Position numbers and translations under genes: made by a program. A stretch of 64,000 bases of DNA from an uncultured delta proteobacterium (GTDB taxonomy: Bacteria; Myxococcota_A; Polyangia; Fen-1088). The stretch spans positions 6,308 to 70,307 of the forward strand of contig CAVWIP010000017.1 of assembly GCA_963755125.1 (NCBI GenBank). The letters are read 5' to 3'. Shown here one piece after another: positions 24,932 to 58,310 of the stretch (its first letter is position 1; every line of letters starts with the position of its first letter). The notes beneath the pieces were generated by a model, which saw nothing but the letters and a program-made list of their open reading frames with translations, had not been told where the DNA came from and did not search any database.

Positions 24932-25038
24932 TACACTTATGAGTCGGCCCCTGCTGGCCCTCCGGAATCGGCGGCAAAAGCCCCGTCCACACCTCCCGGG
25001 CCGAGGCAGGTTTTTGAAACGGTGCCTGCGAGTCAGGG

Positions 25039-26402: not shown

Positions 26403-26520
26403 CGCAGCTGCCGCAGGTGAGGTCAGGATGGCACTGTACGGTAACGATATCTTTGAGAGTGACGCTGCCTACGAACGATGTTTTGACGATGGAGTTGACC
26501 CGATTTGGTGGACGGTTTCG

Positions 26521-27405: not shown

Positions 27406-27707
27406 GCGCTCTCCTTGGCGAAGAAGGTGGCCGCCCTTTTTAAAATCTCACGCTCCATGCGGAGGACTTTCACCTCGCGACGCAGATGCGAAAGTTCTTC
27501 CTTCTCGGCGGTCGTCAGGGCGCCAGCAGGGCCCTTGCCCTCGTCTACCCTCGACTGCCGATCCCACTGGTACACCAGGCTGCTTGCCACCCTGAAGTCC
27601 TTTGCTACCTGCGCGACGCTGCGTCCTGCACGGACGAGCGCCACCAAGTCTGCCTTGAACTCGCGCGTGTGCATGCGCCGGGATCGCTTCTTCTCTTTGT
27701 CCAACAT
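27402..27707 (-). CDS. IS3-family transposase OrfA (HTH)
   Basis: MHTREFKADLVALVRAGRSVAQVAKDF; -1 frame relation to orfB; candidate slippery run TTTTAAAAAG near junction. Confidence 0.8.
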   Translation of the reverse strand: MLDKEKKRSRRMHTREFKADLVALVRAGRSVAQVAKDFRVASSLVYQWDRQSRVDEGKGPAGALTTAEKEELSHLRREVKVLRMEREILKRAATFFAKESA

Positions 27708-28423
27708 GTGGTCACCTTTCTACGCCCATTTTCCTGAGCGAGGGTGTCCACCAAACCGGGTCAAGTCCACGAGAAGAAGCGGTTGTCCTCGATTGTCCTC
27801 CTCACGCTCCTCCAGAACCTTCATGATGTGATGGCCCTTGTCCTCAAGAAGGATCTCAACCTGGTTCCCAAAGAGGGCGCGCCCAAGCCCGCTCGGCTGA
27901 TGTACCACGCCATATGCCTACTGACTCGCTATCTCGCGAAAGAGGACATGCGCGACTTCGTCGCGCTCTGGGGGGCACAGCTTCACTACAAGGACAAGGA
28001 CTTCCGGGAGGAGGTTCGCCGGATCCTGAACTCGACCAAGAGTGGGATTCGCGCCGAATTGTCTCGGCAATTCATGTCGCTTGAGTCTGGGAGCGCGGAG
28101 CAGCTCAACGAGGCTTTTGATCGATGCAAAGCCGCTTTGAAACTCAAGGACGGCATCGATCCCTTCGAGACCTTCAAGGACCTAGATGAACAGGTGCCGG
28201 TGTTAGGGGAAGCTGATGATTGACTGAGGGGATCCCCGCATTTGGGAGTAGCAAGTGTTGATATTGTTGGGTCAGGGACCGGCGCGGTGGTGTGCAGGAG
28301 GTTGATGTTCTTGCCACCATCCACCGAGGCCCGCTGTTTTTCCGACGGTCGCTTCCAGGTATACTACCCCGCGTGGTTGATTGAGTGCCCATGGTTCCTG
28401 TCTCACGTGCAATCGGAGGCACC

Positions 28424-34816: not shown

Positions 34817-36931
34817 TCAGGAACCACTGCCCAGGGCAGGGCATATCTGATCAGACGCCGGACAGGTCAGACACGTCAGCGCGAGCAGCGTGCCTGGAGG
34901 CGCCAGCGGCGCAGTGCTCGGTCGCAGAACAGTGATTCTCTGGTTCATAAATGCGTTCGGGCAGCCCGTGGTTCGATCCGCATCGTAGTAGAGGTACCAG
35001 CAAGGCCGAGCGCTGTCCGGGACGTTGGCCAGCAGGGGATTTGTGGGATCCAGCGGGAGTTGGGTAGTGGGATCTATGCACTCGGTGAGAGTTTCTTGCG
35101 AGTAGCCAGTTGTCAGACACCCATTTTGGCCCGGCGTGGTGCACCCGCTGTCGTAGACAACCTGGCATTCAGGCTGCACGCCAGGTGCATTTGGGTTCGT
35201 GTCGATCAACGGGTACTGCACGCAACCTGGACTCAGCGCCTGCGAGATCGCCTCACCAATTTGGGTCATCGCGTCCGTGAAGTCCTGGTTGCAGATGCTG
35301 AAACGCTGTCCGTTGGCGCCGAAGGCACTGACGAACTTGTTATGGCGAAGACCGCCGTAGGCTTTGTAGATGTTGCCGTCAGAGGCCTGCACAGTGGGAT
35401 TCCAGCAAATGGGCATGTAGTCCCAATAGGTGTTCTCTGGGGCCGGGAGCGACGTGGTGTCAACCCCGATCCTGTATTGATCCGTGGTCTGGACATTGGG
35501 CAAGGCAGTGTCCGGGGGCCAGCCGAAGATGCCAGACACGAGGATCTGGGTCTGGGGATTGCCCTTGACACCGTTGACGCTGTCGATGATGTCCCGCACG
35601 TCGATGAGCGGAAGGTAGGTGGAGTCCAGATTGTTCCTATCGAGCTGCTCCTTGTCCGTGCAATCGGAAAATGGGTGCATGAACCCCAAGGCGCCAGTTC
35701 CAGGTCCAACGTTGGGCGTCGGGGCCGGGTTCTGCGGGGTGAAGCCGTTCACGGGGTCGTAGCCAGGGATTGGTTGGCCACCGCAGAGATGGCCCCGAGC
35801 CGCGCATTTCAGGCTGGCGGTTTCCCCAGGGGGCCTGGTCAGGAACATGCCATCGTTATTGTTGCCGTTTTGGGCTACGTCGGCGACTGGAGCAGAGCAA
35901 TCATCCTCGTCGGTGATGAGCACAATGGCCAGGTATGCCTCGGGACGCAAGAAGCCGACGTTCTCCATGTTGATATCGGTGCAGTTATTGCCTTGGGCGT
36001 TGCAATTCACCTGTTGGGGGTTGAGTGCGACTTGAATCGATTGCAACTGGTGCTCGTAACCGCAGCCCGCGATTCCCACGGACTGGGCGAGGCAGGTGAA
36101 GACGTCCGTAAGCTGGCCGGTGTAGTTCTGCGCCCGCCCAACCCCGTTCGCATTCGCAACATCTGAGATCCACCGGGCACCCGAGTTGAGGCCGCACCCG
36201 TTGGGTGTGGGGTAGGTTGAAATTTGACCGGGGGCGGTCGAATATAGCGTATTGCCGGGCGCGACCGAGGCAATCAGGTTGTTGGGATCGTTTCCCCACA
36301 AAAGGCCGCGATCGCCCAGAACCCGTGAGCAGTTACCGCCGATATTGTCCGAGCCAGCCCCCATGTCGCTGCTGATGACGCCGATGTGGACGTCGGGCAA
36401 ACTTACAGCTGTGCCCGAAGGGTCCAAAGGGTCTGGAAGGTTCTGCAGTACCTGGATCATCTTGGGGAAGTTGGCAGCCAGTGCCTGCTGCTTGGGATCC
36501 ATCGAAGGGGAATTGTCGATCATGAACAAGATGTCGACTTCGCGGCTGACCAAGACGGTGAAGGAGGTCAATGGGAAAATATCGACTGCGTTCGTCACGG
36601 CCTCGCTTGCGCTGGTCACGCCACCGGCTGCGCTGGTCACGCCACCGACTGGGCCCGTCGTGCCACCGGCTGCTGGGCCCGTCGTGCCACCGGCTGCTGG
36701 GCTCGTCGTGCCACCGGCTGCTGGGCTCGTCGTGCCACCGGCTGCTGGGCTCGTCGTGCCACCGGCTGGGCCCGTCACGCCTCCGGGGGCTACTGTCGCA
36801 CCCCCAGGATTCGCGCTGGCGTCGTTGGGTAGGCTGGTGCCTGCCAACGGATCGGACATGCATGCGGCCGACAAGCCTGTGAGCAGGAGTGCGGCCAGCG
36901 AGCCTTGACTGCTGCGAGTGTGGTTTCTCAT
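34817..36931 (-). CDS. VWA-domain lipoprotein with N-terminal GGTTSPAA tandem repeats
   Basis: lipobox LLTGLSAAC; MIDAS DxSxS motif LFMIDNSPSM; many Cys. Confidence 0.6.
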   Translation of the reverse strand: MRNHTRSSQGSLAALLLTGLSAACMSDPLAGTSLPNDASANPGGATVAPGGVTGPAGGTTSPAAGGTTSPAAGGTTSPAAGGTTGPAAGGTTGPVGGVTSAAGGVTSASEAVTNAVDIFPLTSFTVLVSREVDILFMIDNSPSMDPKQQALAANFPKMIQVLQNLPDPLDPSGTAVSLPDVHIGVISSDMGAGSDNIGGNCSRVLGDRGLLWGNDPNNLIASVAPGNTLYSTAPGQISTYPTPNGCGLNSGARWISDVANANGVGRAQNYTGQLTDVFTCLAQSVGIAGCGYEHQLQSIQVALNPQQVNCNAQGNNCTDINMENVGFLRPEAYLAIVLITDEDDCSAPVADVAQNGNNNDGMFLTRPPGETASLKCAARGHLCGGQPIPGYDPVNGFTPQNPAPTPNVGPGTGALGFMHPFSDCTDKEQLDRNNLDSTYLPLIDVRDIIDSVNGVKGNPQTQILVSGIFGWPPDTALPNVQTTDQYRIGVDTTSLPAPENTYWDYMPICWNPTVQASDGNIYKAYGGLRHNKFVSAFGANGQRFSICNQDFTDAMTQIGEAISQALSPGCVQYPLIDTNPNAPGVQPECQVVYDSGCTTPGQNGCLTTGYSQETLTECIDPTTQLPLDPTNPLLANVPDSARPCWYLYYDADRTTGCPNAFMNQRITVLRPSTAPLAPPGTLLALTCLTCPASDQICPALGSGS
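36595..36790. repeat. 24-bp in-frame tandem repeat (~7 copies) encoding GGTTSPAA
   Basis: ccggctgctgggctcgtcgtgcca repeated. Confidence 0.6.
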
Positions 36932-37240
36932 GACCTTACCTAGTCCCCGAACACCAATCGACCTTACAAACGACATCAAAGAAACCAGAAACTGACGCCC
37001 AGGCAAAGCTGGGCTTCGATTCGCGGCAAGGCTGCCAGACGGGGGCTGCCCTGGCCATGTCGTCGCGAGTGTTTGGCGCGACCGGCCACAGGAAGGTGCG
37101 CAGCAAGGGCGCAGCTCGGCCCATTACGCCGACTTGCTTCTGCTCCGGTGCGCGAGTGGGAGCCCGGCCAAGGCTCCCCAGGATGGGGCCAGGTCGCTGT
37201 GTTTCTGGTCTAACCGGTTGTGGGAGGCGGAAGGTCCTGC

Positions 37241-37400
37241 GGTGAATAAGCTATGGGAACTGGGTCCCCTTTGATCCGGGTGTCCACCGTCGCACGCACA
37301 CCGGGGGTGGGGTATGTTGGCCGTTGGAAAAATTTTGGGGCAAAAATTCAAGCCAGCCGGGCCAGCTTGAACCCGGAGGCAGGCTCGCCTCCATCATTAG
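37241..37400. repeat. conserved flank element copy C incl. hairpin GGAGGC aggctc GCCTCC
   Basis: stem differs from copy B by paired A>G / T>C substitutions. Confidence 0.5.
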
Positions 37401-37585
37401 ATCAGGTACCGGAAGCCGCGGCCATCTTCAAAGTGAGCGTGGCGACCATGCGCAGATGGGTCAAGACCGGCCACGTTTCGGTCGTGAAACTGGCAAACAC
37501 GGTCCGTGTTGACCTGCCCCGAGTCCACGGCGTCGATGCGGCGGACGTCGCACGGATGGCCAGGGAGGCACGGGCTCGACGCTGA
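37400..37585 (+). pseudogene. truncated excisionase-like HTH gene (paralog of 19369..19690)
   Basis: IFKVSVATMRRWVKTGHVSVVKLANTVRVDL matches xis HTH; N-terminal half replaced by repeat copy C; no ATG upstream. Confidence 0.3.
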
Positions 37586-37699
37586 AGGCTATCGGTAGGC
37601 GATCCTATCCCGTCCCCAATTCACTACCGACAGTGGGCCCCCTTCGTCGAAGATGCCCACTGTCGTCCGTGCACCAAGGGCAAGGTGTGTCCGCGGGCA

Positions 37700-38548
37700 T
37701 CAACTTCGTGAAACTGCCCTCTCCGACCGATCTCCTTTGCCGAGGTTGCATGAGGTGCAAAGAATCTGAAGGTTCTTCTTCTCGGTCCGGCCACCCCGTG
37801 CCACGGGGATGATGTGGTCCACGTGGAGCTTAACTCCCTCCTTGGCACCATGGCCGCAGGCGCAGCACCGGAATCGGTGAGCCTCCAGAATTTCGTAGCG
37901 CAGGCCGAGGGGGACGCTGCGACCCTTGAACACGCGACCGGCGTCTTCGGGGTGCACTTCACGCTTCGGCAGCGATTGGAGGGAGTAGCCCTTGTTGCCC
38001 ATGAAGTGACCCTTCACCAGCGCCACGGTGAGGAAGGATCGCAGGAAGGATTGGGGAGTGGTGTCTACGAGGACGCCCGATTTCCCATCGAACGTGCCCA
38101 ACACCAGACGGTGGTTCTCATCGACCTCCATACCCAACCGTCGGAGCATGCCGCAAAGTTCATCGGCCCGAGTCGCACGGGCAGCTGCGCCAATCTTGCG
38201 GGTGGCGAGTCGCAGGGTCTGGGTCAAGGTGAAGATGGCTCCCTTGTGGCGCAGCAGGGTTAGGTTCACGGAGAAGAGCATGCCTCTTGCGCAGTAGGCA
38301 AATAGCCTCCAGTGGTCGTTCACGTTCAAGTAAAGCTGGAGGGAGATCTCAAGTTGCTGTTCCCTACCGATAGTGAACGTGTACTCCAGTTCGCGGTGAA
38401 GCAACTGCCAGTCTTCGTGGTTGTACTGAAGCCTCGAAGTCGTAAGGATTCCTCGGTGTCCGGCAATCCGGGTCTTGCCGAACTCCAGGTCCAGTGCTGG
38501 CAAGGTATTCTCTACGAGCAAATCTCGAAATCTCAACACGTAGGCTGG
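37700..38548 (-). CDS. HNH-nuclease-domain protein with unknown N-terminal domain
   Basis: C-terminal CCACGH..VDHIIPVARGG..NLQILCTSCN HNH motif; downstream of Detocs-like operon. Confidence 0.5.
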   Translation of the reverse strand, partial: PAYVLRFRDLLVENTLPALDLEFGKTRIAGHRGILTTSRLQYNHEDWQLLHRELEYTFTIGREQQLEISLQLYLNVNDHWRLFAYCARGMLFSVNLTLLRHKGAIFTLTQTLRLATRKIGAAARATRADELCGMLRRLGMEVDENHRLVLGTFDGKSGVLVDTTPQSFLRSFLTVALVKGHFMGNKGYSLQSLPKREVHPEDAGRVFKGRSVPLGLRYEILEAHRFRCCACGHGAKEGVKLHVDHIIPVARGGRTEKKNLQILCTSCNLGKGDRSERAVSRS

Positions 38549-38965
38549 GGCTCTCATCTTCGCACCACCCTTCTGCCAGGTTGCCGTGACGTCTCTGCGA
38601 CTGAACCGGGAACGGGGTTGGCCTGCGCCGCACGTAGGTCCGCCACGATCACCTCGGCATCCCGGCGCTTGAATTCCTTGGGAGAACCCCGAAACTGGCC
38701 CGTCCACGCGATGGGCGAGACCATGTTCTGGAAGAAGCTCAGCCGGTCACGCTGGGTCAGCACCGGCACCCCAAGGCCCTTCACACGGAACCGTACGTAG
38801 AAGTTCTTGGATCTCGCGGGAATCCGGCGATTTCCATTGTCTTCCTGGCGAGGAAAATCGGGCACTTCCGCACTTTTTCGACCAGTAGTGCTAGCCGTCC
38901 CCTGGTCCGGACAAAGTCTTTTGCGGCTGACAGCCCCGTCGTGCAAATCCATTCTTGCGCGGTCT

Positions 38966-41538
38966 CTAGGATTCCCGTCCGAGCTGCCCCGGGCTGGTAC
39001 GGTTCGGTCCTCGTCGGCGCTTCCCTCCTCCATCCTTGGGGCCAGCCAAGTGCTCCAGAGCGAATTCATACAGGAAACGCGCACTCGTGTATGCAGCGTA
39101 CCGTTGATAGTCGTCCCCCTTTGCGGAGTCCCCGAAATCGCAAACTGACTTGACAGACATAGCCGCAGGCCGCGGTTCCCTACAGTGCGCCGCCGCCACG
39201 AAAACGGCGTAGGTCTCCATCTCGACGCCGATGACCTTGCGGTTTCTTCGAACGATGTCCTCCATGACCGTCCTGTCTGCGACGACGGAGGCCCCAGACG
39301 CGATGGGACCGATCTGAGCGCTGAGTTCAAACCGCGGCCGGGTTCCTGGCCATTTCCCAGATATCCCCGCGAGCATCTTCCCATCGAGCCGAAACTGCCC
39401 CAATCTCGCCTTGAGGACTGGATCTAGTGGCAATGGCGAAGGAGATGGAGCGAAGCGACTCCCGCTACCGGCAACAGCTGTAACCTTGCCCGCACCGTAG
39501 TCCCACGACTGGTCGGCAATTAGGATGTCGCCGAAATTGCCCTCCACGCCGGCTGCTATCCCCGCCATCGCCAAGTACCGCGGCCGGAAGCGCTCCACGA
39601 TCTTCATAGCCAGAACAGCCGTAGCGGGCATGCCAACATCGCCCGTAGCAGCTGCGACGACCCGCATCCGCTTACCCGAACGGGTAAAGACTCCACAGTG
39701 GTAGATAGCGCTGTCGCCCTTAAAGCTCTTTTCCTTCCATTTCCCTGGCAGGTTCAACACCGCCTGCAACTCTACGGCCTCCAGAGCGGTCATGATCGCC
39801 ATGTCGACCGGCCCGCTGGGCGCATCACGACCGAAAACCTCATCAACTATGTATACCAACTTCTGTCCAAGTGGAGTTGACCCGATTTGGTGGACGGTTT
39901 CGTTACGCAGCTTTCTTACCAGCTTTCTTCACTGAGTGCATCAGCTCAAATTCGATTGGGCTGTTGTAATTGAGCGCCGAATGACGGCGGCAAGGATTGT
40001 AGAAGCCTTCGATGTACTCGCCAATCGAGAGGTTAGCTGCCTCCCAGCTTTCGAGATCGTCGATGTCTTCCAACTCGCGCTTGAGGGTCGCGAAGAAACT
40101 CTCGGCCACGGCATTATCCCAGCAGTCTCCCTTCCGGCTCATGCTGCATTCTATGCTTCCGGCTTCCAAGGCTTTGCGGTAGTCGTCGCTCGCGTACGTG
40201 CTGCCTCGATCTGAGTGGTGAACCAGGCCGCTGCCGGGCTGGCGTTGGCACAAGGCCATGGCCAGTGCCGCGAGCGCGAGGTGGCGATCGACATTCCGAC
40301 TGGTCGCCCAGCCGACAACCCGCCTGGAAAACAGGTCGAGAATCACCGCGAGGTACAGCCAGCCTTGCTGCGTCCACAGAAACGTGATGTCAGTGACCCA
40401 CGACTGGTTTGGACGAAGCGCGGTGAAGTTGCGCTCCAGCACATTCGGCGCGATGGGGAAGCTGTGCTTCGAGTCGGTGGTCGTGCGAAAACGATGACGA
40501 CAGCGCGCCACCAGCTTGTTTTCGCGCATCAGCCTGGCCACCCGCTTGCAACCCACCCGATCCCCGGAAGCTTTGAGGTCGGCATGAACACGGGGACTGC
40601 CGTATCGTCGCCGGCTCCCGTGATGAATCGCGGCTATCCGCTCGGACAGATCCTGGTCACGGCGTGCGTGCAACGAGGCGGGCCGTCCCTGGCTGGCGTA
40701 GTAGCCACTGGGCGAAACGGCCAAGACACGGCAGAGGACCGCGACGGGGAAGGCCACCTTCTCCTCGGAGATGAACGCAAACCTCACGCGCTCTCCTTGG
40801 CGAAGAAGGTGGCCGCCCTTTTTAAAATCTCACGCTCCATGCGGAGGACTTTCACCTCGCGACGCAGATGCGAAAGTTCTTCCTTCTCGGCGGTCGTCAG
40901 GGCGCCAGCAGGGCCCTTGCCCTCGTCTACCCTCGACTGCCGATCCCACTGGTACACCAGGCTGCTTGCCACCCTGAAGTCCTTTGCTACCTGCGCGACG
41001 CTGCGTCCTGCACGGACGAGCGCCACCAAGTCTGCCTTGAACTCGCGCGTGTGCATGCGCCGGGATCGCTTCTTCTCTTTGTCCAACATGTGGTCACCTT
41101 TCTACGCCCATTTTCCTGAGCGAGGGTGTCCACCAAACCGGGTCAAGTCCAAAGTTTCTCCGCCCAGTCGTTCGAGCTTTCCTCATACTTAACCAGGTGC
41201 CACAGGCTCGCCTCGAAGTCGCCACGGTATTGATCGCGAAGATCATCAAAGGCAGTAAGCCCCACGATGTGCCCTGGTCGGATAGCACCTCCCCGCTTCT
41301 TGAACCGAATCATTACCGTCATCCCGCCGTCCGATCGCGCTGGTTCGCCACGTCGGACTGGCAACTTCAAGTCGATAATGAGGAGATCAAACCGCTGTCG
41401 CGTCATGGCCTGCGTGGCATCATTTGCCGTGGTCGCAACCTCCACGATCAGATTCTCTTCCGCGACGAAAGCATGCAGGGTCTGGATGACAGCGTCCACC
41501 TTCCGCCGGTTGTCATCGGCAATAAGTACTCTAATCAT
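38966..41538 (-). pseudogene. dtcC: dtcC-like REC-PNP effector gene interrupted by IS3 copy 2 (REC 41152..41538 | PNP-like 38966..39871)
   Basis: REC MIRVLIADD..LLIIDLKLP; PNP/MTA-nucleosidase-like MRVVAAATGDVGMPATAV..VIGVEMETYAVF; frames join as ..AEKL|GQKLVYIVDEV.. after removing IS and one TSD. Confidence 0.55.
39872..41151 (-). mobile_element. IS3-family insertion sequence, copy 2 (identical to copy 1)
   Basis: same IRs; 3-bp TSD aag (39869..39871, 41152..41154); contains orfB 39903..40787 and orfA 40784..41089. Confidence 0.85.
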
Positions 41539-41992
41539 CTCTCTTCAGCCTTCTTTGCACTATCTCGCGCAGTTTGTTGCGCCAGCCAGACTCGGACGGC
41601 TCGTAAAAGACCGTCCCCCAATATCTACCCTCAAATTCCGCCCCCATCTTGGCAGCCAATTCATCGAGACTCTGCGTCTCTTCTCCCGTTCCAAAACTCT
41701 CAAACTGAGTGACCACAACGACGCCAACCGCGAGGTTCCTTCGCTTCAATTCTGCAAGGATATCATAGCCGCTGAATGGGCGCGGTCTGCCGCCCTTCTC
41801 CAAAGACGAAATGTCATACGTTGGCATGCTCATGTCGAGAAGTATAAGTCTGGGCTTCAGCTCCACCGCCGCCTGGAGACCGCTCTGGTATGAGCGGCGC
41901 TCAGTCACGTCCCCTTGAAGAAGATCTTCCCGAACAAAGCGCATCAACTCCCGACTCTTGTTCGGGTCGTCCTCAATGATGAGGATTTTCAT
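41531..41992 (-). CDS. dtcB: stand-alone receiver (REC) domain protein, DtcB-like
   Basis: MKILIIEDD..LILLDMSMP..K REC motifs; ATGA overlap with upstream kinase gene, 8-bp overlap with downstream REC. Confidence 0.5.
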   Translation of the reverse strand: MKILIIEDDPNKSRELMRFVREDLLQGDVTERRSYQSGLQAAVELKPRLILLDMSMPTYDISSLEKGGRPRPFSGYDILAELKRRNLAVGVVVVTQFESFGTGEETQSLDELAAKMGAEFEGRYWGTVFYEPSESGWRNKLREIVQRRLKRDD

Positions 41993-44900
41993 GTTTGCAA
42001 ACCCTCCAGCGACAATTCTACCCTTATCGCAAAGCCCTCTTTGGGCTTAACATCGACATCGATGGAGTAGTCCTCTTGCCCCAGGTCGTACTTGGCGATC
42101 TTGTGTAGCTTCGCAAACCCACTGCCCCCCTCCTGACGAATGACGCCTGTCGCCCTCTTTGCTGTTTCAAGGAGAGACCGAGCCGTCCTCTGCAAGTCCT
42201 CGACCGAGATGTCGGGGCCCAAGGCATTACGTACCTCAATAACCAAGCGAGCGCAATGCGCGAATATCCGGCCCTGCACCCGTGGTCGGTCAAGCTGGGC
42301 GTGTCTCACAGCGTTCTCGAAGAGAATAAAGAGCAGGTCAATGAAGGCTGTAAAGCTACTCCCCTTCATCATAAGAGATTCGTCCCCGATCTCCATTTCA
42401 GGGAACTCCGCGAGGTTAGGAAAGCAGTTTCGCAGGATCTCGCTCGACGCGTAGGCAAGAAGCGTAAGCTTGTAGTCAGGTACTGCCTCCTCCTCCCCGA
42501 CTTTGAACCAGGCCGCAATGGCACCAAGTTCGTTCGCGACGCTCGTACGACAGCGCGCCAGAGCCGCAGAAAGGTCTGCGTTGCGCGTGCCAGGGGCCAA
42601 TTCTCCGAGCGCCCTCTCCAAGTCGTCGATTGTCTGAAGGAGGCGCTGGCAAAGCTCCCCGGTGATTCGGTCTCTGATCTTCGCTAGCTGAGCCTGGGTC
42701 CTTTCCCAGAGGTTCGCAAACACGGCTTCAACGAACCGCTCGACGTCGGCTATCTGAAGTACGGCGAGGTATAGATTGACGGCATCAGCGTCGGTGTAGT
42801 CGAAGTCGAACATCCCAGCAGCTTTGCTCCGCGACTTGATCTGGAGCCAATCCTCCTTTACCTCCTGGATCAGCCCGTCGATCGTGGCAGAGAAGCGGCG
42901 AAACGCATCGTTGATCTTGTCGCGGACCGCAGCGGGGCTGGACAGCGTTAAGGGCTTGCTCCAATGCGCGTTGTACTCGTATTGTGCTGTTCTTGCGTTC
43001 TTTCGGGTGATCAGTGCCTCTCTCTCGAACTGGCTTCTGATTTGGCCCGATAGAGTCCCGTGCCGAATCCGGACGCTCAGGTACGAATCGAGGCCAAATT
43101 CGTTGCTCGAAATGAACCTGGCGCGAAGATCGTCGAAGAGATCCTGGAACTGCTGCAGAGTCGCATCGCTAATGACAAGTACGGGCTCCTCTGTGTCGAA
43201 TCTCAGGTCCTTCAGAGCGAGCGTTTCTCGGAGCCTTCCGGTCAGCAACGAGAACGCCCGGAAGCGCAGAAACTTGTCGTAAAACCCACGGTCGAGAGAG
43301 CGAACGATCCCCGACGTATCGACGTGGATTTTGCTCTCGCCATATCGTTGGAGCGCCCGACGGATCACCAGGGCTTCCGTTCTTCGTGCAATTTCCGTGG
43401 AGGATGCGTCGGAGGAAGCAGGATCTATGGCGAGGAGCGTCTGGCATATTGCAATCCGCTCACGCTCAAGGTCCTCCGAGCTACCAAACGCGACGGAGTA
43501 GTCCATCACCTCCGGAATGCAAACGTGTCGAAGAAAGTGAATGTAGCGCCTGGCTGGGAAACTGTCTTTGCGTGTGAAGAGTTCGCTCGGCTTCCGCGCG
43601 CCGGCTTGCGAAAGAAAGTCGTCATAGGCGGCGTAGGTAGACCGAAAGGAGTCTTGTCTTCGGCGTGCCTGTCGCGGGATCGAGAAGAGAATGGGCCAGA
43701 CAAGCGAATCTTGTCGGGTTGGGGGATGGGCCTTGCATGCATCGATGATTTCTTGGATAGGGAAGGCCCCTATACCGTTGGGCCGCTCCAGGTACGCGTC
43801 CACAGTAATCTCGGCCGCTTCGGCGGGCTGCCCTGCGGACAGGTAGGCAGAGCAGAGACCGAGCGACGCTTCATGGCGGAGCGGCATGCCCCCCTGGGGG
43901 TGTGAAAGGAGGGCTGAATAGTGCACAATTGCGCGACGATACTCTCCACGCAACACAGCATGACGAGCTTCGTACTTCTCTGCGCGCGGCGGCCAGATCC
44001 CTTCGAAGGAAGTGGGGGCGCGATCTCTGAATAGGTCGACGACTGGGCCGTGCTCGTACCAAGAAGCGATCTTGTCGAGAAAGGCTGGCTTGTCGTTCGG
44101 AGGCAGAATCTCCGAGAAGCGGGGGGTAATGGCGCTTGCGGCCAGAGCGCCGAAGACCTCCATGTCAAGGCCGGTTTTTATGCATCCTTGGACTGCGAGA
44201 AATGCCAGGACCTGGTCGGCGAACCTGGTCCCGTCGAGCGTGTGCGTGAGTTTCCGCAACCACGCGACGGCCTCGGTTGTGTCCGGGCCTCGCGCTAGCA
44301 CCGAAATCACGGCGCGAACCAATGGCTCGGCCGACCCGAACCTGGCGCCGTCCGGCTCCCGCCCGAGATAGAGGCAGCTTTTCGCATAGAGCTCAACGAA
44401 CTCGAATGCGTCCGTTCCCCTCGCGAGCACGTCTTCGGCCTTGAGGGCCGCCTCTTCGTGGGCACCACTGGTGTAGGCGTTTAAGACGTATGCGAGAAAC
44501 GGGTCCGGAGGCGTCGCCGGAAGCGCGGAACGCGGATTTGCTAAGAGATTCAACAGCTCCAACCGCTTGTCCTTCACGGCTTGGGCGAGGGAGCCAATGC
44601 ACTCACGGAGGGCCCCTCGGGCGTGCGTTTCCGGGTCGCTGGCGCAGATCTGAAGGCACCGCAAATAGCAGCAATACCGATCCACCATCGGGTAGCTCGC
44701 CTCCCGATGGAGCACATGTCGAACATCCGGCTTGAATCGGAGGCTGGAGAAATCGAATTGGAAACGGAAGGCGCTAATGGCGCCCTTTATCTCTGGCTGG
44801 TCAGATCCTGGGACCCCCGCACAAAGGGTGTCTATTGCACTCTCATAGTTCGAGGCCGAGAGTTCCTCCTCCACCCTTTGACTAATGAGCGTTGCGTGGA

Positions 44901-45486
44901 CGCGCACAAATTCACTGCCGGCTTGTTCAGCCAGATCGGCAAGGTGGGCTCGATTTTCCTTGAGCCCACCCTGCTTCTGGGCCAGGAGCAGCTCAGCTCT
45001 GAGCGTCCAAAGGGACTGGCCTAGTCGGTCGACGATTTGTCGGAGCGTTGCTGCGGCTTCGGCGAGATCTACCGTGAGCAGGGCTGCCTCGAACCGGTCC
45101 CGCAATGCAATGAATCCAGAAAGACGATCAGCATACCTCTTTAGGACGGCGCAGTTCCACCGCAGTTCATCGGCAAGAGAGTTGCCGATCGGCAGGACCT
45201 GCGCTCTCGTGAAGTCGGCGTAGGTCTGCGGAAAGGCAGTGCCTGTGATCAGACGTTCTGCGGCGGGCTGGTGATACCTGAGCACACGACCAATAAGCTT
45301 GATGGACTCCGCTTTTAGACTGATCCGGGCTGCCGCCCCACGCCTCGTAGGTTCAAGCAGACGCAGATATCGTACGGGGATGAACCCTGGCGCATTCTCG
45401 CCCTTTTCTCGAAGCCTGCGGACCTCTCTGCGTTTCGCGCGGCGCAGCACGCCTGCCCGCTTTGCTTGTCTCTTCAGTGCCACCAC
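41989..45486 (-). CDS. dtcA: large histidine-kinase-like protein (helical N-terminal region + C-terminal HATPase_c), DtcA-like
   Basis: GHKL motifs ILFENAVRHA (N box), EVRNALG, GGSGFAKLHKI (G box); ~900-aa helical N-terminus; GTG start uncertain. Confidence 0.5.
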   Translation of the reverse strand: MVALKRQAKRAGVLRRAKRREVRRLREKGENAPGFIPVRYLRLLEPTRRGAAARISLKAESIKLIGRVLRYHQPAAERLITGTAFPQTYADFTRAQVLPIGNSLADELRWNCAVLKRYADRLSGFIALRDRFEAALLTVDLAEAAATLRQIVDRLGQSLWTLRAELLLAQKQGGLKENRAHLADLAEQAGSEFVRVHATLISQRVEEELSASNYESAIDTLCAGVPGSDQPEIKGAISAFRFQFDFSSLRFKPDVRHVLHREASYPMVDRYCCYLRCLQICASDPETHARGALRECIGSLAQAVKDKRLELLNLLANPRSALPATPPDPFLAYVLNAYTSGAHEEAALKAEDVLARGTDAFEFVELYAKSCLYLGREPDGARFGSAEPLVRAVISVLARGPDTTEAVAWLRKLTHTLDGTRFADQVLAFLAVQGCIKTGLDMEVFGALAASAITPRFSEILPPNDKPAFLDKIASWYEHGPVVDLFRDRAPTSFEGIWPPRAEKYEARHAVLRGEYRRAIVHYSALLSHPQGGMPLRHEASLGLCSAYLSAGQPAEAAEITVDAYLERPNGIGAFPIQEIIDACKAHPPTRQDSLVWPILFSIPRQARRRQDSFRSTYAAYDDFLSQAGARKPSELFTRKDSFPARRYIHFLRHVCIPEVMDYSVAFGSSEDLERERIAICQTLLAIDPASSDASSTEIARRTEALVIRRALQRYGESKIHVDTSGIVRSLDRGFYDKFLRFRAFSLLTGRLRETLALKDLRFDTEEPVLVISDATLQQFQDLFDDLRARFISSNEFGLDSYLSVRIRHGTLSGQIRSQFEREALITRKNARTAQYEYNAHWSKPLTLSSPAAVRDKINDAFRRFSATIDGLIQEVKEDWLQIKSRSKAAGMFDFDYTDADAVNLYLAVLQIADVERFVEAVFANLWERTQAQLAKIRDRITGELCQRLLQTIDDLERALGELAPGTRNADLSAALARCRTSVANELGAIAAWFKVGEEEAVPDYKLTLLAYASSEILRNCFPNLAEFPEMEIGDESLMMKGSSFTAFIDLLFILFENAVRHAQLDRPRVQGRIFAHCARLVIEVRNALGPDISVEDLQRTARSLLETAKRATGVIRQEGGSGFAKLHKIAKYDLGQEDYSIDVDVKPKEGFAIRVELSLEGLQT

Positions 45487-45663
45487 ATCCCTCTTGGATC
45501 AATGTTCGCAGATTTCCATTCTCACAGTGTCTCGACAACTGTCCCAAACGTCAACATGATCGCTGGACTCCGTCCCCGTATTGATTCTTCTGGCCTGCGA
45601 CCAACGGTTGCGGCGGCTGGGAGATCCAGATCGAAGTGACCCTGGGACACCGCTGATGCGACT

Positions 45664-46257
45664 CTACTTCTCCCTCTTCTTCATCGACCGCGCCAGCTTC
45701 ACGGCCTCGGCAACACCCTTCTCCGCTGCGGTCTTCTTCACCTTGGCTCTGTCCGCGCCTGTGAGCGATTTCAAGGCAGCCAGGTACTGCCCTTGCAGCT
45801 TCCGCGCCCGCCTGACCTTTGGCGTGACCTTCTTCACCTTCTTTGCCGCCGCCGGCTTGGCCCCTGTCCCGTGAGTGACCTTGCCCGCCCGTCGCTCCTC
45901 CCGGTACTTCTTGATCTTGCTCTTGGCCACGTTCTTGTGGTCCTTGCAGACCATGCCGAAGACTGGTGCTGCCACGTTCTTGCAGCCGGGTACTGGACAA
46001 AGGTGCTTTGGTGGCTTCTTCTTTTCCGCCGATTTTTTCACCGTCACATCCGCCGCAAGTGCCACAGCATGCTTGGGTGGCCTACCTGGTCCGCGTTTTT
46101 GCGGAATACCAAAGGCACCAGCAAGCGCAGCCTGGATTCGTTGAGCTACGGCTGCCTCAACGGTGGCAACGATCTGCTGGGTGAAGGTTTCGATCTGAGC
46201 GGTGATGTGCGGGTCGGTGTGGGGCATGAGGTCTCCTGGTTGTTTCTTGCCCGCCAT
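45664..46257 (-). CDS. Lys-rich DNA-binding-like protein with CxxC..CxxH zinc knuckle
   Basis: CPVPGCKN..MVCKDHK; AKKVKKVTPKVRRARK tails typical of histone-like proteins. Confidence 0.4.
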   Translation of the reverse strand: MAGKKQPGDLMPHTDPHITAQIETFTQQIVATVEAAVAQRIQAALAGAFGIPQKRGPGRPPKHAVALAADVTVKKSAEKKKPPKHLCPVPGCKNVAAPVFGMVCKDHKNVAKSKIKKYREERRAGKVTHGTGAKPAAAKKVKKVTPKVRRARKLQGQYLAALKSLTGADRAKVKKTAAEKGVAEAVKLARSMKKREK

Positions 46258-46260
46258 CGT

Positions 46261-46320
46261 ATGGGCTGCCGGGGAAATGGGCAACCAGATCGAAGTGGCC
46301 GGGGATGAAGGGGTCTGGCT
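46261..46320. repeat. ~60-bp repeat, copy 1 (copy 2 at 48895..48958)
   Basis: atgggctgcSgggaaatgggcaaccagatcgaagtggcSggggatgaagggg. Confidence 0.5.
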
Positions 46321-46540
46321 ACGCCACCGCGTTTGAGTTGGCCATCTCCGCGTGAGAATCGGGCTGGTAGGCCGGAACAAGACGGGGCTCAGACATAGAG
46401 CCGCTGCTGAATCGAATTGACGAGCAGTAGCCGCCTAGTCCGCAGTCTCCGTTGATGTGACGATTGCTTCCCGTCACATAGGAACCTGGGATGGTTCCTT
46501 GATCGTCAAGAACCACCCTGGCTCGTTGCGCTAGTCTCGC

Positions 46541-48526
46541 CTAGGTCTTACCAGTGGCGGTCATGCCTCCAGTTGCCTTGGTTCCGCCCATGGCTGAGGT
46601 GCCGCCGGTGGCGGTCGTGCCTCCCGTTGCATGGCTTCCGCCCATGCCCATCGAACCGCCCGAACTCGTTACGCCACCCGTGGCTGAGGTGCCACCGGCG
46701 GATGTCGCGCCTCCAGTTGCATTACTTCCACTCGTGCTCGTCGAACCGCCGGAGCTAGTTGCGCCGCCCGAGGCCGAGGTGCCGCCAGTGGATGTTGTGC
46801 CTCCAGTTGCGTTAGTTCCACCCGTGCTCGTCGTGCCACCCGCACCTGTTGTGCCACCGGTGGATGTCGTGCCGCTGCTCGCGAGCTTGTATACCTCGCT
46901 GCCTGCCAGCAGGAAGCACCCAACCCCGTAGTCGTCGAAGTCGGCGAGCATGGTTGGACCTAGACGTCCAGGGTCTTGTGGGTTTTCGGTGCAGGGCAGA
47001 GCGCCCGTGGCCTGCACGTACCCGAGCAGGCCATCCGACTGAAGGGCGATGGTGGAAAGGCCGTTCCAGGCGCTCTGCAGGGCTGGGCCGTAGGTCGCAA
47101 CGTCAAGAAATCCCTTGCGAATGCCCCAGGCTAGACCGTAGGTAAAGAGCGCCGTTCCGCTGGTTTCTGGACCATCGTCGCCGGTCAGGCCGATGCTTGC
47201 GCACTGGGTGGGATCGAAAAGACTCTCATTCCAAAAACCGTCGCTGCGCTGGAGGGGCACCAGCGCCTTGGCAATGGCCTGGAAGTCCGAGACGTACGTG
47301 GCCCGATGGGCATCGGTGGTCGGCAGGATGTCGAGAACCCGCGTCAGAGCTGCGAAGACCCAGCCGTTTCCACGCGACCAGTAAATGCTCTTTCCGTTCG
47401 GGGCCACGATGTAGGCATCGGTGGTTTGCGCCGGTAAGCTCGACATCAGGCTTGCGGTTATCGTCAACTCGGAGCAGTAATCGAGGCCGGCATCGGCGTT
47501 GCCGTCGACGCTGCCATCGACACTGGCATCAATACTGCCGTCGACGCTGCTTGCAACGCCGGCATCGGGGCTGCATTCGCCGGCTTCACTGTCCAGGGTT
47601 GGCGTGTAGTGCAAATCGCGCCACCAGAGCCCATCGGCGGCGTTAAATAAGCCTCCGCCTTCGCTCATGCGAGCGTCATTGTAGAGGGCCCACATGGCAT
47701 CGAAGTAGCCGCCATTGGGGTACAGAACCCCCAACTTCGCGAACACGGGCATGGACATCTGGATGGCGTCGATCCACCACCACACATTCGCGGTCCCGTT
47801 CGACACCATGGCGTCGATGCTTGCCTTGATTGCCTGGATGCGGACCGGCTGCGGATCGATGTTGTAGAGATCGATGTAGGTCTGGCCGCAAGCCTGATTG
47901 TTCGCGTCGGTCGACGTAACACCTGCCGCTGTGTTTGCCAGGAGCCAAGGATGCGTCGGGCTCGCACCCCATGTGACGGCGTAGTTGTAGTAGGTCTGCT
48001 GGTTCGTCGTGTCGGGGTCCACGTTGTAGAGCCCCATGAGTCCTTCGTAGTACGCAGCCCGAGTCCAGAGATTGCTGGGCCTAGTCTTGTTCGTGACGAT
48101 GTCCGCAGTGGGATCGGGATGTTTCGTCATGAACCAGGTATTCGCTCGCTGCATGTTTTCCAGCACTGACGAGTTAGCCGGCAAGCCCGTGAGTGTTGTC
48201 ACCCCACCGGAACTGGTCGCGCCACCCGAACCTCCGCCGGTTGTGGTGGAACCACCCGACATCGTTGCTCCACCTGAACTGCTCACACCACCTGAGCTGG
48301 TTGTCGAACCACCGGTCACGATAGTTGAGCCACCGGTACTCGATCCTGCGGTACTCGTGCCGCCGGCACCGATACCACCGGTGCCTCCGTGCGAGCTGGC
48401 GGACGCCGTGCCCCCGTTATGTCCCGCAGTGTTCGTGCTCGATGAACTTGAGCATGCCGCGAACGTGACGGCGGCAGACAGAAGAAACGCACAACGCCAG
48501 TAGAATCGAAAACAGTTGGTGCTCAT
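46541..48526 (-). CDS. glycoside hydrolase family 88/105-like lipoprotein with Gly/Ser/Thr-rich linkers
   Basis: YYEGLMGLY, WWWIDAIQMSMPVFAKLG, GNGWVFAALTRVL motifs of unsaturated glucuronyl/rhamnogalacturonyl hydrolases; lipobox FAAC. Confidence 0.55.
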   Translation of the reverse strand: MSTNCFRFYWRCAFLLSAAVTFAACSSSSSTNTAGHNGGTASASSHGGTGGIGAGGTSTAGSSTGGSTIVTGGSTTSSGGVSSSGGATMSGGSTTTGGGSGGATSSGGVTTLTGLPANSSVLENMQRANTWFMTKHPDPTADIVTNKTRPSNLWTRAAYYEGLMGLYNVDPDTTNQQTYYNYAVTWGASPTHPWLLANTAAGVTSTDANNQACGQTYIDLYNIDPQPVRIQAIKASIDAMVSNGTANVWWWIDAIQMSMPVFAKLGVLYPNGGYFDAMWALYNDARMSEGGGLFNAADGLWWRDLHYTPTLDSEAGECSPDAGVASSVDGSIDASVDGSVDGNADAGLDYCSELTITASLMSSLPAQTTDAYIVAPNGKSIYWSRGNGWVFAALTRVLDILPTTDAHRATYVSDFQAIAKALVPLQRSDGFWNESLFDPTQCASIGLTGDDGPETSGTALFTYGLAWGIRKGFLDVATYGPALQSAWNGLSTIALQSDGLLGYVQATGALPCTENPQDPGRLGPTMLADFDDYGVGCFLLAGSEVYKLASSGTTSTGGTTGAGGTTSTGGTNATGGTTSTGGTSASGGATSSGGSTSTSGSNATGGATSAGGTSATGGVTSSGGSMGMGGSHATGGTTATGGTSAMGGTKATGGMTATGKT

Positions 48527-49018: not shown

Positions 49019-49750
49019 TCAGATTTCCACCACGAGCCGGTCCAGGAACTCGGGATTGGGCTCCTCGCCCATGTACCCGAACGGATTGCACAGCACCGTG
49101 GTCTCTCCGATCTGAGTGCGCATGGATGCATGTGAGTGCCCATGCAGCCAGAGCCTTGGCCGGCGTTCTAGTATCAGCTCCGTGAGGTCGCACACGAAGA
49201 ACGGGTTGAGCAGGCTTCCCGCGAATCTAGGTGCGACACAACGCTGTGACGGCAGGTGGTGAGTCACGACGATGTCGCCGGGGCGCAACTGCTGATCGAG
49301 GAAGGCGACAGCCCTGGCGTTCTCCTCGTACACCCAGGACTCGAAGTCCTTGATGACGGAGAAATCGCTCAACAAGTGCTTGAGTCCTTCATTGATGGTG
49401 GAGCGCGGGAACCACAGCGGTACCCCCAGGAAGTTGAACCCGAGAAGTTCGGTGCCCGAGGCATCAAGCCAGATAAGATTGGGGTTCTCGGCCTGCGCCT
49501 GCCGGGTGAGGTCGAGCACGCTACTGCGGTTCGTCCTGTAAAATTCGTGGTTGCCGTGAACGTACACGACGGAGGCGTCACGGAATCTCCGGCACAGCAG
49601 CGCGAGTGCCGCGGGGATGCCATCCGCAACGGCGACATCGCCGGCAAGCACCAGCACGTCGACACCAGATGGGTCGAGCGACTCAACGAAGGAGCGCCCA
49701 CCGTCCCGGTGAAACTCGAAGTGCAGGTCGGAGAGGAGTTGGAGGCGCAT
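49019..49750 (-). CDS. metallophosphoesterase (calcineurin-like)
   Basis: LSDLHFE, LAGDV, GNHEF, THH, GHSH motifs. Confidence 0.6.
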   Translation of the reverse strand: MRLQLLSDLHFEFHRDGGRSFVESLDPSGVDVLVLAGDVAVADGIPAALALLCRRFRDASVVYVHGNHEFYRTNRSSVLDLTRQAQAENPNLIWLDASGTELLGFNFLGVPLWFPRSTINEGLKHLLSDFSVIKDFESWVYEENARAVAFLDQQLRPGDIVVTHHLPSQRCVAPRFAGSLLNPFFVCDLTELILERRPRLWLHGHSHASMRTQIGETTVLCNPFGYMGEEPNPEFLDRLVVEI

Positions 49751-49795
49751 ACAGGTCCATCCCAGGGTAGCATGCGTCCCTGACGAGCTTTCAGA

Positions 49796-50695
49796 ATGAC
49801 TACCCAGGCCCACCTTCCCCGTCAGGCCGCACCAAACGACGACGAACCTGCCCGTCAGGCAGCAATCGAGCGCTACCTACGCACCGGCAAGTACGAGACC
49901 ACTTCTCCCGCCTGGCCGGGTAACGCCTGGGAGCGCGAGGTCCGTGCACACGACGACATGATCCGGGCTCTGGTGGCCGAGGTGAACAAGCTCGCAGCTG
50001 GGCACGAAATTCCATCTGCTTCGCTTCCCGCCGACTTGGTGGCGTTCACACGCAAGAAGGTGGAGCCCATGGCGCGTGGGCTGTTCCGGCGTGACGAGCA
50101 GGAGGCTGTGCTGGCGGTTCTGGAGAAGTCGGTGGTGTTCTTGACCCCCGCGAACATCGACCAGGTGCTGCTCCAGTGCAGCTGGCTGCACACGGCATGG
50201 TCCCTGGCGAACCTGTATCTGGACAGCATGGGCGCGTCCCTGCTGGGACCGGATGCTGACAAGATCGTGGGCCTGAGCGAGGAGACCACCTGCTTCGTGT
50301 CCCTCAAGTATTTCAAGATGGAGGACCCGTTCGCGGACTTCGTCGTCCACGAGGCTGCGCACATCTTCCACAACTGCAAGCGGCGCACGATAGGGCTGGC
50401 GGAAACAAAAAGGCAGGAATGGCTGTTGGATATCGAGTACCGGAAGCGCGAGACTTTTGCCTACGCCTGCGAGGCGTACGCACGCATCCTGGAACGCGCA
50501 CCCAAGCCACAAGATCGCCCGGCCCTTGCCACCGAGTACGCAAGCAAGGTGCGCGTGTCAGGTGAGCGTGTGGACACGGTCGAAGTGAACAGCATCTTGG
50601 CTGATGCGTGCGCGGCAAGAAACGGGTGGAAGATCATCCTGGGCAGGTGCGCACCGGAGAAGAGCAGGACCATTTCCATGCCGCCTCAGATCTAA
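49796..50695 (+). CDS. hypothetical protein with HExxH motif (putative metallopeptidase)
   Basis: VVHEAAHIFHN. Confidence 0.35.
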   Translation: MTTQAHLPRQAAPNDDEPARQAAIERYLRTGKYETTSPAWPGNAWEREVRAHDDMIRALVAEVNKLAAGHEIPSASLPADLVAFTRKKVEPMARGLFRRDEQEAVLAVLEKSVVFLTPANIDQVLLQCSWLHTAWSLANLYLDSMGASLLGPDADKIVGLSEETTCFVSLKYFKMEDPFADFVVHEAAHIFHNCKRRTIGLAETKRQEWLLDIEYRKRETFAYACEAYARILERAPKPQDRPALATEYASKVRVSGERVDTVEVNSILADACAARNGWKIILGRCAPEKSRTISMPPQI

Positions 50696-58271: not shown

Positions 58272-58310
58272 TTGGGAAGCCGATGCTCTACCAACTGAGC
58301 TACTCGCGCA
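58272..58310. repeat. 39-bp direct repeat (partial tRNA-Gly 5' half), right copy; putative attR
   Basis: identical to 17955..17993; tRNA similarity stops after anticodon loop. Confidence 0.6.

Follow-up and report, generated by a model that had tools for sequence, protein, structure and literature searches.

A Detocs operon of a Polyangia genome probably inactivated by an IS3-family insertion in its effector gene

In the window analysed here, a 64,000-nucleotide stretch of DNA from a metagenome-assembled genome of Polyangia (Myxococcota), three genes resembling those of an abortive-infection system are accompanied by a mobile element within the last of them, which raises the question of what the locus encodes, whether the insertion is genuine and recent, and what it would leave of the defence. 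In intact Detocs, infection is sensed by DtcA, a histidine kinase with TPRs, which phosphorylates itself on a conserved histidine (Rousset et al. 2023, 10.1101/2023.01.24.525353). The phosphate is passed to the receiver domain of DtcC and switches on its PNP-type domain, and activated DtcC cleaves ATP and dATP to adenine and ribose-5'-triphosphate, aborting infection, while DtcB, a lone receiver, has been proposed to act as a phosphate 'buffer' that takes up stray phosphate (10.1101/2023.01.24.525353). [quoted passage not shown] The locus described here is very likely a canonical Detocs operon whose effector was cut by a recent IS3-family insertion and which, in all likelihood, no longer functions in defence.

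All three genes are encoded on the minus strand. The sensor histidine kinase gene dtcA (45486..41989) specifies 1165 aa when read from the GTG at 45486 and 1164 aa when read from 45483, and is followed by dtcB (41992..41531), which encodes a stand-alone receiver domain of 153 aa. The third gene is present as a 5' ORF of 131 aa (41538..41143, native over 41152..41538) and a 3' fragment (39868..38966) encoding a PNP/MTA-nucleosidase-like domain, equivalent to residues 130-429 of the restored protein. The initial annotation had described three co-directional, overlapping genes in the DtcA/DtcB/DtcC layout; the former is borne out by the ORF arrangement, with overlaps of 4 nt (dtcA/dtcB) and 8 nt (dtcB/dtcC), and the latter by profile searches, in which DtcA, DtcB and restored DtcC matched PADLOC PDC-M60A, PDC-M60B and PDC-M60C (E = 4.2e-101, 2e-36 and 1e-107, respectively), restored DtcC over residues 3-398. 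PADLOC PDC-M60 and DefenseFinder Detocs are names given to identical protein sets (PMC11811056 supplement). Detection of Detocs requires dtcA, dtcB and dtcC with no more than one foreign gene between neighbours (Rousset et al. 2023, 10.1101/2023.01.24.525353), and the locus has precisely these genes, adjacent and co-directional, the insertion sequence (IS) lying inside dtcC and not between genes. The locus is nevertheless a disrupted Detocs rather than an intact member, since the receiver and PNP domains are carried by two ORFs flanking a 1,280-bp IS and are found on one polypeptide only after in-silico removal of the element.

Of 80 related genome loci, 73 have the same gene order and a single dtcC of ~410 aa, most of the other seven being interrupted by a contig end. 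The HNH gene downstream (37700..38557) was considered as a fourth Detocs gene and rejected, as a homolog was found in none of the 80 loci, and the 132-aa call (38554..38952) that separates this HNH gene from dtcC is probably spurious, having no Pfam match and a composition like that of an off-frame translation. Compared with Detocs of Vibrio alginolyticus UCD-32C, the operon shares gene order and protein sizes (a histidine kinase of ~1,150 aa with candidate TPRs, a receiver of ~150 aa and a receiver-PNP protein of ~410 aa) and keeps the kinase histidine, the acceptor aspartates of both receivers and the acidic motif of the PNP domain; it differs in its host, a member of Polyangia, and in the IS-split effector gene, which probably renders the system inactive. 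The nearest full-length relatives of its DtcC, ~50% identical, are found in Archangium and Corallococcus, and the DtcC of the window additionally carries a basic C-terminal tail of ~25 residues.

DtcA is so divergent that a word-seeded homolog search with the full-length protein returned only itself, and its relatives were collected from the neighbours of DtcC homologs, a profile search yielding 15 proteins suitable for modelling. Modelling was used to test the fold because DtcA by itself matched nothing in a PDB sequence search and the family profile matched PhoQ only weakly. The N-terminus appears helical and TPR-like, whereas the C-terminus forms a DHp-CA kinase module with the conserved phospho-accepting histidine and a GHKL ATP-binding domain. 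The HATPase_c C-terminus proposed earlier for this protein therefore stands at the level of fold, although Pfam HATPase_c itself was not detected on DtcA in the Pfam search. Pfam TPR_16 scored 18.9 bits (E = 0.0021), under its cut-off of 32.7, and the family profile matched consensus TPR proteins at 7.9e-16 over profile positions ~326-354 and ~500-590. Among 40 highly conserved columns, DtcA departs from the majority residue in one. An exact-sequence look-up of the 1165-aa protein found no match because other annotators begin dtcA one codon later; the corresponding look-ups of DtcB and of the PNP fragment succeeded. DtcB is a stand-alone receiver that matches Pfam Response_reg at 32.9 bits (cut-off 30.2), and the aspartate at its acceptor position, D53, is kept in 77 of 79 homologs.

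The reading of dtcC as a single interrupted gene is carried by its restoration. Deletion in silico of the IS and one AAG gives the empty site GACTGGGCGGAGAAACTTGGACAGAAGTTGGTATAC and an ORF of 1,290 nt, divisible by 3, that encodes 429 aa and reads ..WAEKL|GQKLVYIVDEV.. across the junction, exactly as the initial annotation had predicted. Its comparison with IS-free homologs gave the same picture, restored DtcC aligning without a gap at the junction with 29 full-length proteins. As also anticipated, the receiver fragment ends within the IS (..WAEKLWT*), the 131-aa ORF running to 41143, and the PNP half is retained, open from a TTG at 39859 to 38966. Restored DtcC matches Pfam Response_reg, and the DtcB profile aligns to its residues 2-134. 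Pfam PNP_UDP_1, the family whose absence had been named beforehand as grounds for abandoning the assignment, matches residues 152-377 at 58 bits (E = 1.2e-15, cut-off 25.1); the other such ground, lack of a GHKL fold in the kinase-like protein, was likewise put to the test, with an outcome that favours the assignment. The insertion point, residue 129/130, falls within the final few residues of the receiver-homologous region and 22 residues before the Pfam PNP match; it is thus not in a separate free linker, the REC-PNP linker in which the IS had first been placed.

Further searches also link the PNP half to nucleosidases. The NCBIfam MTA/SAH nucleosidase model matched at 1.9e-11, below the model cut-off, a PDB profile search retrieved MTA/SAH nucleosidases in alignments that bring the VEME and SD motifs into register, and the PADLOC profile 'Effector, PN-superfamily' matched DtcC residues 313-394 (E = 9.7e-16). 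Fusion of a receiver to an effector is a feature of DtcC, the effector being PNP in ~80% of Detocs systems. The same domain type, presumably with the same chemistry (cleavage of the N-glycosidic bond of ATP or dATP), is found in the Cap17/immune ATP nucleosidase clade of the PNP_UDP_1 superfamily, a CBASS effector; Cap17, here likened to DtcC by profile match, is controlled by a cyclic-nucleotide sensor, whereas DtcC is controlled by phosphotransfer to its receiver. Residues D9, D56, E347 and D373 of DtcC are invariant in 30 sequences, E345 is nearly so, and the acidic motif VEME...CDFGD is conserved; judging by alignment position, D56 and D373 probably correspond to D58 and D353 of the V. alginolyticus protein. 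The conserved residues of both halves are all intact, and in the 67 columns where >=90% of homologs agree, restored DtcC has the majority residue in 65. Such preservation would equally fit continued selection on the fragments.

The inserted element (39872..41151, minus strand, the same orientation as the operon) belongs to the IS3 family, as originally proposed and at the length of 1,280 bp given then. It is bounded by terminal inverted repeats of 24 nt (41128..41151 and 39872..39895; 22/24 complementary, TG...CA) and by a 3-bp target-site duplication, AAG on the plus and CTT on the minus strand (41152..41154, at the left IS end in gene orientation, and 39869..39871). It encodes orfA (41089..40784, minus strand, 101 aa, HTH_Tnp_1) and, in the -1 frame, orfB (40787..39903, minus strand, 294 aa, DDE/rve), with an A-rich slippery-like site, TTTTAAAAAGGG (A AAA AGG), from ~40827, a layout suited to programmed -1 frameshifting. 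Pfam matches of the two ORFs comprise HTH_Tnp_1, HTH_21, rve and rve_3; in the NCBIfam IS3 transposase model NF033516, orfA covers positions 1-86 and orfB positions 90-369, the latter with 344.8 bits (cut-off 160). A 395-aa 'IS3 family transposase' in the 90% cluster of orfB at NCBI is, by its length, consistent with a fused OrfAB product. The length of ~1.3 kb, an HTH-encoding orfA followed by a DDE-encoding orfB, the A-rich slippery site, the TG...CA ends and the 3-bp duplication are shared with IS3, IS911 and IS150, the family assignment being made by model and anatomy.

A second copy of the element (26490..27769, minus strand) lies 12 kb from dtcC, differs by 0 mismatches over 1,280 bp, has its own CGA duplication and interrupts an AIPR (Abi-like) gene in its C-terminal part. 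That the two direct copies make up a composite transposon was ruled out because each has its own matching duplication (AAG and CGA). No inverted repeats were found at the apparent AIPR inversion breakpoints, where they were sought. Both the Detocs and the AIPR locus are situated on an island of ~40 kb bounded by att repeats derived from part of a tRNA-Gly gene, and tRNA-Gly was the only hit of Rfam and tRNA scans of the window. The inverted-repeat pattern of the IS was matched four times in the window, the expectation from shuffled sequence being 0. The element seems to be present at high copy number in the source genome, as its exact transposase protein occurs on 43 contigs and contigs assembled from short reads are broken at it.

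The insertion is also seen in other assemblies of the lineage. Among contigs drawn from ENA, NCBI and Logan assemblies, each of the nine independent ones that extend to the dtcC edge of the upstream junction runs on into the IS, by 4 to >45 nt, and both of those that reach the PNP edge of the downstream junction emerge from it. Over the aligned stretches the identity of these contigs to the window is 99.4-100%, and the nine must therefore be counted as one lineage and not as independent events. An IS-free dtcC allele was found in none of the sampled contigs reaching the junctions. JGI metagenome contigs gave 0 matches both to the empty site and to sequence common to the two alleles; the source organism is absent from that collection, and its zero counts are thus uninformative on an IS-free variant. 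The insertion is inherited by every sampled member of a near-clonal lineage. It is also evolutionarily recent, as had been suggested, given the identical copy 12 kb away, the intact duplication and the near-complete retention of conserved DtcC and DtcA columns.

Taken together, the element would have inserted where the receiver domain ends, at codon 129/130 of dtcC, duplicating 3 bp. With the receiver and the PNP domain now encoded by separate reading frames, phosphotransfer could no longer reach the effector. Translational coupling would presumably still allow synthesis of the receiver fragment (129 native residues and 2 encoded by the IS), whereas the PNP half, deprived of start codon and ribosome-binding site, is probably expressed barely or not at all. 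Translation of this half might begin at the TTG at 39859 (297 aa) or at an ATG at 39802 (278 aa, the choice of other annotators); neither is preceded by the purine-rich element that dtcA, dtcB, dtcC, orfA and the HNH gene have upstream. On the other side, read-through transcripts may reach the PNP half, since the IS runs in the direction of the operon and holds no terminator-like site above chance, and NCBI lists this half as an ordinary protein of 297 aa rather than a pseudogene. With phosphotransfer presumably blocked and the PNP half probably almost silent, the system is most likely non-functional. IS3 elements transpose by a copy-out-paste-in route in which the donor copy stays in place, so the break in dtcC is effectively permanent. 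A 3-bp duplication is also too short for efficient precise excision, and on these two general grounds a reversible phase switch was rejected.

Whether the loss was merely tolerated or was favoured is a separate matter. If the Detocs effector were costly, for instance through autoimmune depletion of ATP, the knock-out could have swept the lineage rather than drifted. The toxicity of the deregulated effector in the published system, where the DtcB acceptor-aspartate mutant acts PNP-dependently, fits such a sweep, as do the presence of the insertion in every sampled contig of the lineage and the disruption of a second defence-type gene of the island, AIPR, by the same element. However, two hits on one island can be due to chance when the IS is at high copy, and in a near-clonal lineage fixation by hitch-hiking is indistinguishable from selection; selected inactivation is accordingly regarded as unlikely.

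The possibility that the insertion created something new is weaker still. The truncated receiver, the domesticated decoy proposed in the initial annotation, could serve as a second phosphate sink like DtcB, the free PNP domain could act as a differently regulated toxin expressed by read-through from the IS or from an IS-borne promoter, or both. The fragment does keep 129 of ~134 receiver-homologous residues, including all invariant ones, with a start still coupled translationally to dtcB; the PNP fragment closely matches the construct reported as active by itself in vitro (residues 140-387; 10.1101/2023.01.24.525353), and a weak promoter-like site (9/12; 40024..39996) in the co-oriented IS points at it. 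Yet the region has five promoter-like sites where 2.0 +/- 1.3 are expected, which is near chance, neither candidate PNP start has a ribosome-binding site, and the high toxicity of free PNP in E. coli argues against any meaningful expression here. Moreover, a natural two-gene arrangement of receiver and PNP occurs in none of the 80 related loci, giving no sign that a split design is viable. New functions for the fragments are thus improbable, and the same low probability attaches to the broader proposal that the IS rewired Detocs into an extra phosphate sink and a PNP toxin that is low-level or dependent on IS or operon transcription, and that the element perhaps preferentially disarms the abortive-infection effectors of the island, both Detocs and AIPR having been hit, as a selected route for shedding costly immunity.

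Misplacement of the IS in an intact dtcC by repeat collapse or chimeric joining is extremely improbable, for although the IS is a multi-copy repeat at whose borders short-read contigs end, and one long contig (L003) terminates in a fold-back of IS sequence, nine contigs cross from unique dtcC into the IS and two leave it into the PNP half, no contig has the empty site, and the perfect 3-bp duplication with exact in-frame restoration is the signature of real transposition.

The probable inactivation of a canonical Detocs operon by a recent insertion is ordinary decay of a defence gene in a known anti-phage system and reveals no new mechanism or family. Its practical use is in annotation: automated pipelines give the pieces as 'response regulator' and 'hypothetical protein' and do not recognise that the two jointly make up a disrupted Detocs effector. 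The locus represents a well-documented natural example of the probable disabling of Detocs by a mobile element, in Myxococcota, a phylum in which the system is not known to have been studied, and the cut lies almost exactly at the receiver/effector boundary that was used experimentally to obtain a constitutively toxic PNP construct. The hits on Detocs and AIPR by one and the same IS illustrate how rapidly the abortive-infection genes of defence islands turn over.

Three closely packed ORFs on the minus strand between 37.7 and 45.5 kb encode DtcA (45486..41989; 1165 aa), DtcB (41992..41531; 153 aa), which shares 4 nt with the dtcA ORF, and the receiver fragment of DtcC (41538..41143; 131 aa), which shares 8 nt with the dtcB ORF and ends in ..WAEKLWT before its stop codon. 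They are followed by two ORFs of the insertion-sequence type (41089..40784, 101 aa; 40787..39903, 294 aa) and then by the PNP half of dtcC, open from a TTG at 39859 to 38966. Scripted removal of the IS (39872..41151) together with one AAG yields a 1,290-nt ORF of 429 codons that reads ..WAEKLGQKLVYIVDEV... The initial annotation, which had described the three-gene layout, the 1280-bp IS with its 3-bp duplication and the in-frame joining of the two halves, thus proved right in every detail when assessed by DNA reading, a repeat finder and the deletion script.

The products of the operon are recognized by the PADLOC profiles PDC-M60A (DtcA, E = 4.2e-101), PDC-M60B (DtcB, 2e-36) and PDC-M60C (restored DtcC, 1e-107, residues 3–398 of 429). 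PDC-M60 is the provisional PADLOC name for Detocs, the same triplets being called 'Detocs' by DefenseFinder and 'PDC-M60' by PADLOC (PMC11811056 supplement). DtcB matches Pfam Response_reg (32.9 bits, cut-off 30.2), while restored DtcC matches both Response_reg and PNP_UDP_1, the latter over residues 152–377 (58 bits, cut-off 25.1), in agreement with the earlier assignment of a PNP-like segment. A PDB search with a profile of 30 DtcC sequences retrieved MTA/SAH nucleosidases and response regulators, with the VEME and SD catalytic motifs aligned.

At E <= 1e-10, 216 proteins are related to restored DtcC. The nearest full-length ones, from Archangium violaceum, Corallococcus coralloides and metagenomes, are approximately 50 % identical, and the sole 100 % match is the 278-aa PNP fragment itself. 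In an alignment with 29 full-length homologues the junction is ungapped and all 38 invariant columns are kept, including D9, D56, E347 and D373, with E345 nearly invariant. At columns with at least 90 % agreement among the other sequences, the window departs from the majority in 2 of 67 for DtcC, both conservatively, and in 1 of 40 for DtcA. The order dtcA (~1,150–1,200 aa), dtcB (~150 aa), dtcC (~410 aa) was found in 73 of the 80 genome loci with DtcC relatives, most of the remainder being interrupted by a contig end, and none of the 80 contains a split dtcC. In three of these related genomes (L056, L089 and L090) dtcA is spread over several ORFs with dtcB and dtcC seemingly intact, which reflects either decay of Detocs in other lineages too or errors of MAG assembly. 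A Cellvibrionaceae MAG (L057, 4574..7573) carries a 1,000-residue open stretch that at its C-terminus resembles the PNP domain of DtcC (match to residues 95–403), and DtcA and DtcB are absent nearby, representing the same effector in another architecture.

The DtcA kinase is less readily recognized by sequence. Pfam HATPase_c gave no match in this DtcA and was matched in just 1 of 30 relatives; a direct PDB sequence search with DtcA also returned no match. DtcA relatives gathered from genes adjoining DtcC homologues are only 18–29 % identical to it. H809 (His, in LSxRIRHGxLxG) and N1058 (Asn, in DNxxxHS) are invariant among them, and an EGGSGxxK motif is conserved. The family profile matches consensus TPR proteins at 7.9e-16 and gives a weak match (0.0045) to the PhoQ catalytic domain. 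Fold comparison named ThkA, HK853, CheA and others, and Foldseek concurred, ranking GHKL kinases top with a TM of 0.68–0.73 to the ThkA CA domain. This agreement confirms, at the level of structural comparison, the predicted GHKL/DHp-CA fold of DtcA; the kinase-like reading of the protein thus stands at the level of fold, whereas its HATPase_c domain goes undetected by Pfam. Precomputed annotation labels all DtcA-family proteins as Pfam PF27260 (Y4jQ), a match not given by the Pfam copy scanned here, so the family appears to have a recent Pfam model of its own instead of being recognized as histidine kinases.

The IS is exactly 1,280 bp long, flanked on both sides by AAG (plus strand) and, according to DNA reading and the repeat finder, bounded by 24-nt inverted repeats (41128..41151 and 39872..39895; 22 of 24 positions complementary) with TG...CA ends. 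Its transposase scores 344.8 bits against the IS3-family model NCBIfam NF033516 (cut-off 160), with orfA covering model positions 1–86 and orfB, in the -1 frame after an A AAA AGG site, positions 90–369. In the NCBI listing, orfB shares a 90 % cluster with a 395-aa 'IS3 family transposase' that, judged by length alone, would correspond to the fused OrfAB product. The pattern is not a product of chance: the inverted-repeat sequence is present four times in the window and never in shuffles, and these occurrences delimit a second copy at 26490..27769 that shows no differences over 1,280 bp and has its own 3-bp duplication, CGA.

Removal of the second copy (flanks 26202..28223) restores a plus-strand ORF corresponding to positions 119–301 of 308 of Pfam AIPR (E = 1.7e-7). 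It breaks the C-terminal part of an abortive-infection-type gene, and therefore the same IS has struck two defence-type genes on one island. The N-terminal piece (21840..23084; model positions 1–118) lies 3 kb away on the minus strand, and the complementarity of the pieces on opposite strands suggests rearrangement besides IS insertion. It looks as if a single AIPR gene was broken by inversion or rearrangement of roughly 21981..26210; inverted repeats sought at the presumed breakpoints were not found.

Both genes lie within what looks like an integrated genomic island of ~40 kb. It is defined by a 39-bp exact direct repeat of the 5' half of tRNA-Gly(CCC) (17919..17992), present at 17955..17993 and 58272..58310, 40.3 kb apart, by two genes adjoining the tRNA (tyrosine integrase, 18027..19424; DUF3631 protein, 19385..21307), and by a G+C content of 0.53–0.63 between the repeats versus 0.65–0.69 at 10–18 kb. 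Besides Detocs and the AIPR gene, the cargo comprises a calcineurin-like phosphoesterase (Metallophos; 49019..49813, minus; PADLOC PDC-S10, 1.1e-10), a UPF0149/SEC-C protein (55908..56618, minus; PDC-S12, 2.4e-44) and a 285-aa HNH protein (37700..38557, minus). The latter has a C-terminal Pfam HNH match (3.3e-11) and weak PADLOC matches to PtuB and type II REase, with no family match in its N-terminal ~230 residues. Its gene follows dtcC in the same orientation, after a gap of ~400 nt, and is probably independent of Detocs, since no homologue occurs beside Detocs in any of the 80 related loci. Across the tRNA from the first integrase, a second tyrosine integrase (16617..17981, plus), whose ORF runs into the tRNA gene, and further left, in higher-G+C DNA, a Replic_Relax protein (14239..15159, plus) possibly belong to a separate element integrated at the same tRNA.

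By its NCBI names, the source lineage is a Polyangia MAG. The 131-aa receiver fragment, whose last residues are IS-encoded, recurs, as does the 153-aa DtcB, in ENA, NCBI (at least four MAG protein accessions) and Logan assemblies. At the upstream junction, all nine contigs reaching it read TGGA(CTTGACC...), that is, IS sequence, after ..GAGAAACTT, and both contigs reaching the downstream junction emerge from the IS; the empty site occurs in none of the contigs examined. These contigs are 99.4–100 % identical to the window across aligned stretches and sample one near-clonal lineage rather than independent insertions. Scans of JGI metagenomes found neither the empty site nor sequence shared by both alleles, and have no bearing on an IS-free allele. 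The assemblies do differ: over 12.4 kb (window positions 35555..47992), a 1.5-Mb ENA contig (L002) shows two mismatches and a single gap relative to the window. At the end of a 253-kb ENA contig (L003, 7869..8874) the IS continues into its own copy in inverted orientation, 99.9 % identical, probably a fold-back assembly artefact at the repeat and not a real nested insertion.

In the published model of Detocs, DtcA detects infection, autophosphorylates and passes phosphate to DtcC, whose PNP domain then splits ATP and dATP, leading to abortive infection, while DtcB acts as a buffer for leaky phosphorylation; defence is lost when the kinase His or either D58 or D353 of DtcC is mutated, and the PNP domain alone (residues 140–387) is highly toxic in E. 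coli (Rousset et al. 2023 preprint, 10.1101/2023.01.24.525353). The PNP fragment in the window is almost identical in extent to that toxic construct. The IS separates it from a receiver of 129 native residues, essentially complete relative to the DtcB profile; in the DNA the two domains lie physically apart, with their residues intact and the IS copies identical. After such a split, phosphotransfer to the effector would no longer be possible. The PNP half is probably poorly translated, because both candidate starts lack the purine-rich element found upstream of dtcA, dtcB, dtcC, orfA and the HNH gene; toxicity would be expected from a PNP domain expressed freely. Two features count against its full silence: the IS shares the orientation of the operon, and it contains a weak promoter-like site (40024..39996, 9/12) that points to the PNP half, although such sites are near chance in the region (5 found versus 2.0 +/- 1.3 expected). 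IS3 elements transpose by copy-out-paste-in, and for this reason the break is likely to be stable.

By architecture, profiles, fold and conserved residues, the locus is a Detocs system, which upholds the initial annotation of a Detocs operon with an IS-split effector on the basis of the PDC-M60 profiles, PNP_UDP_1 and the joined frames. It falls short of the Detocs definition in lacking an intact receiver–effector DtcC, so the system is a disrupted member. The disruption of defence genes by insertion sequences is common. Detocs has been known since 2023 (10.1101/2023.01.24.525353), and the locus is a probably inactivated member of this known system, with no departure from its known mechanism.
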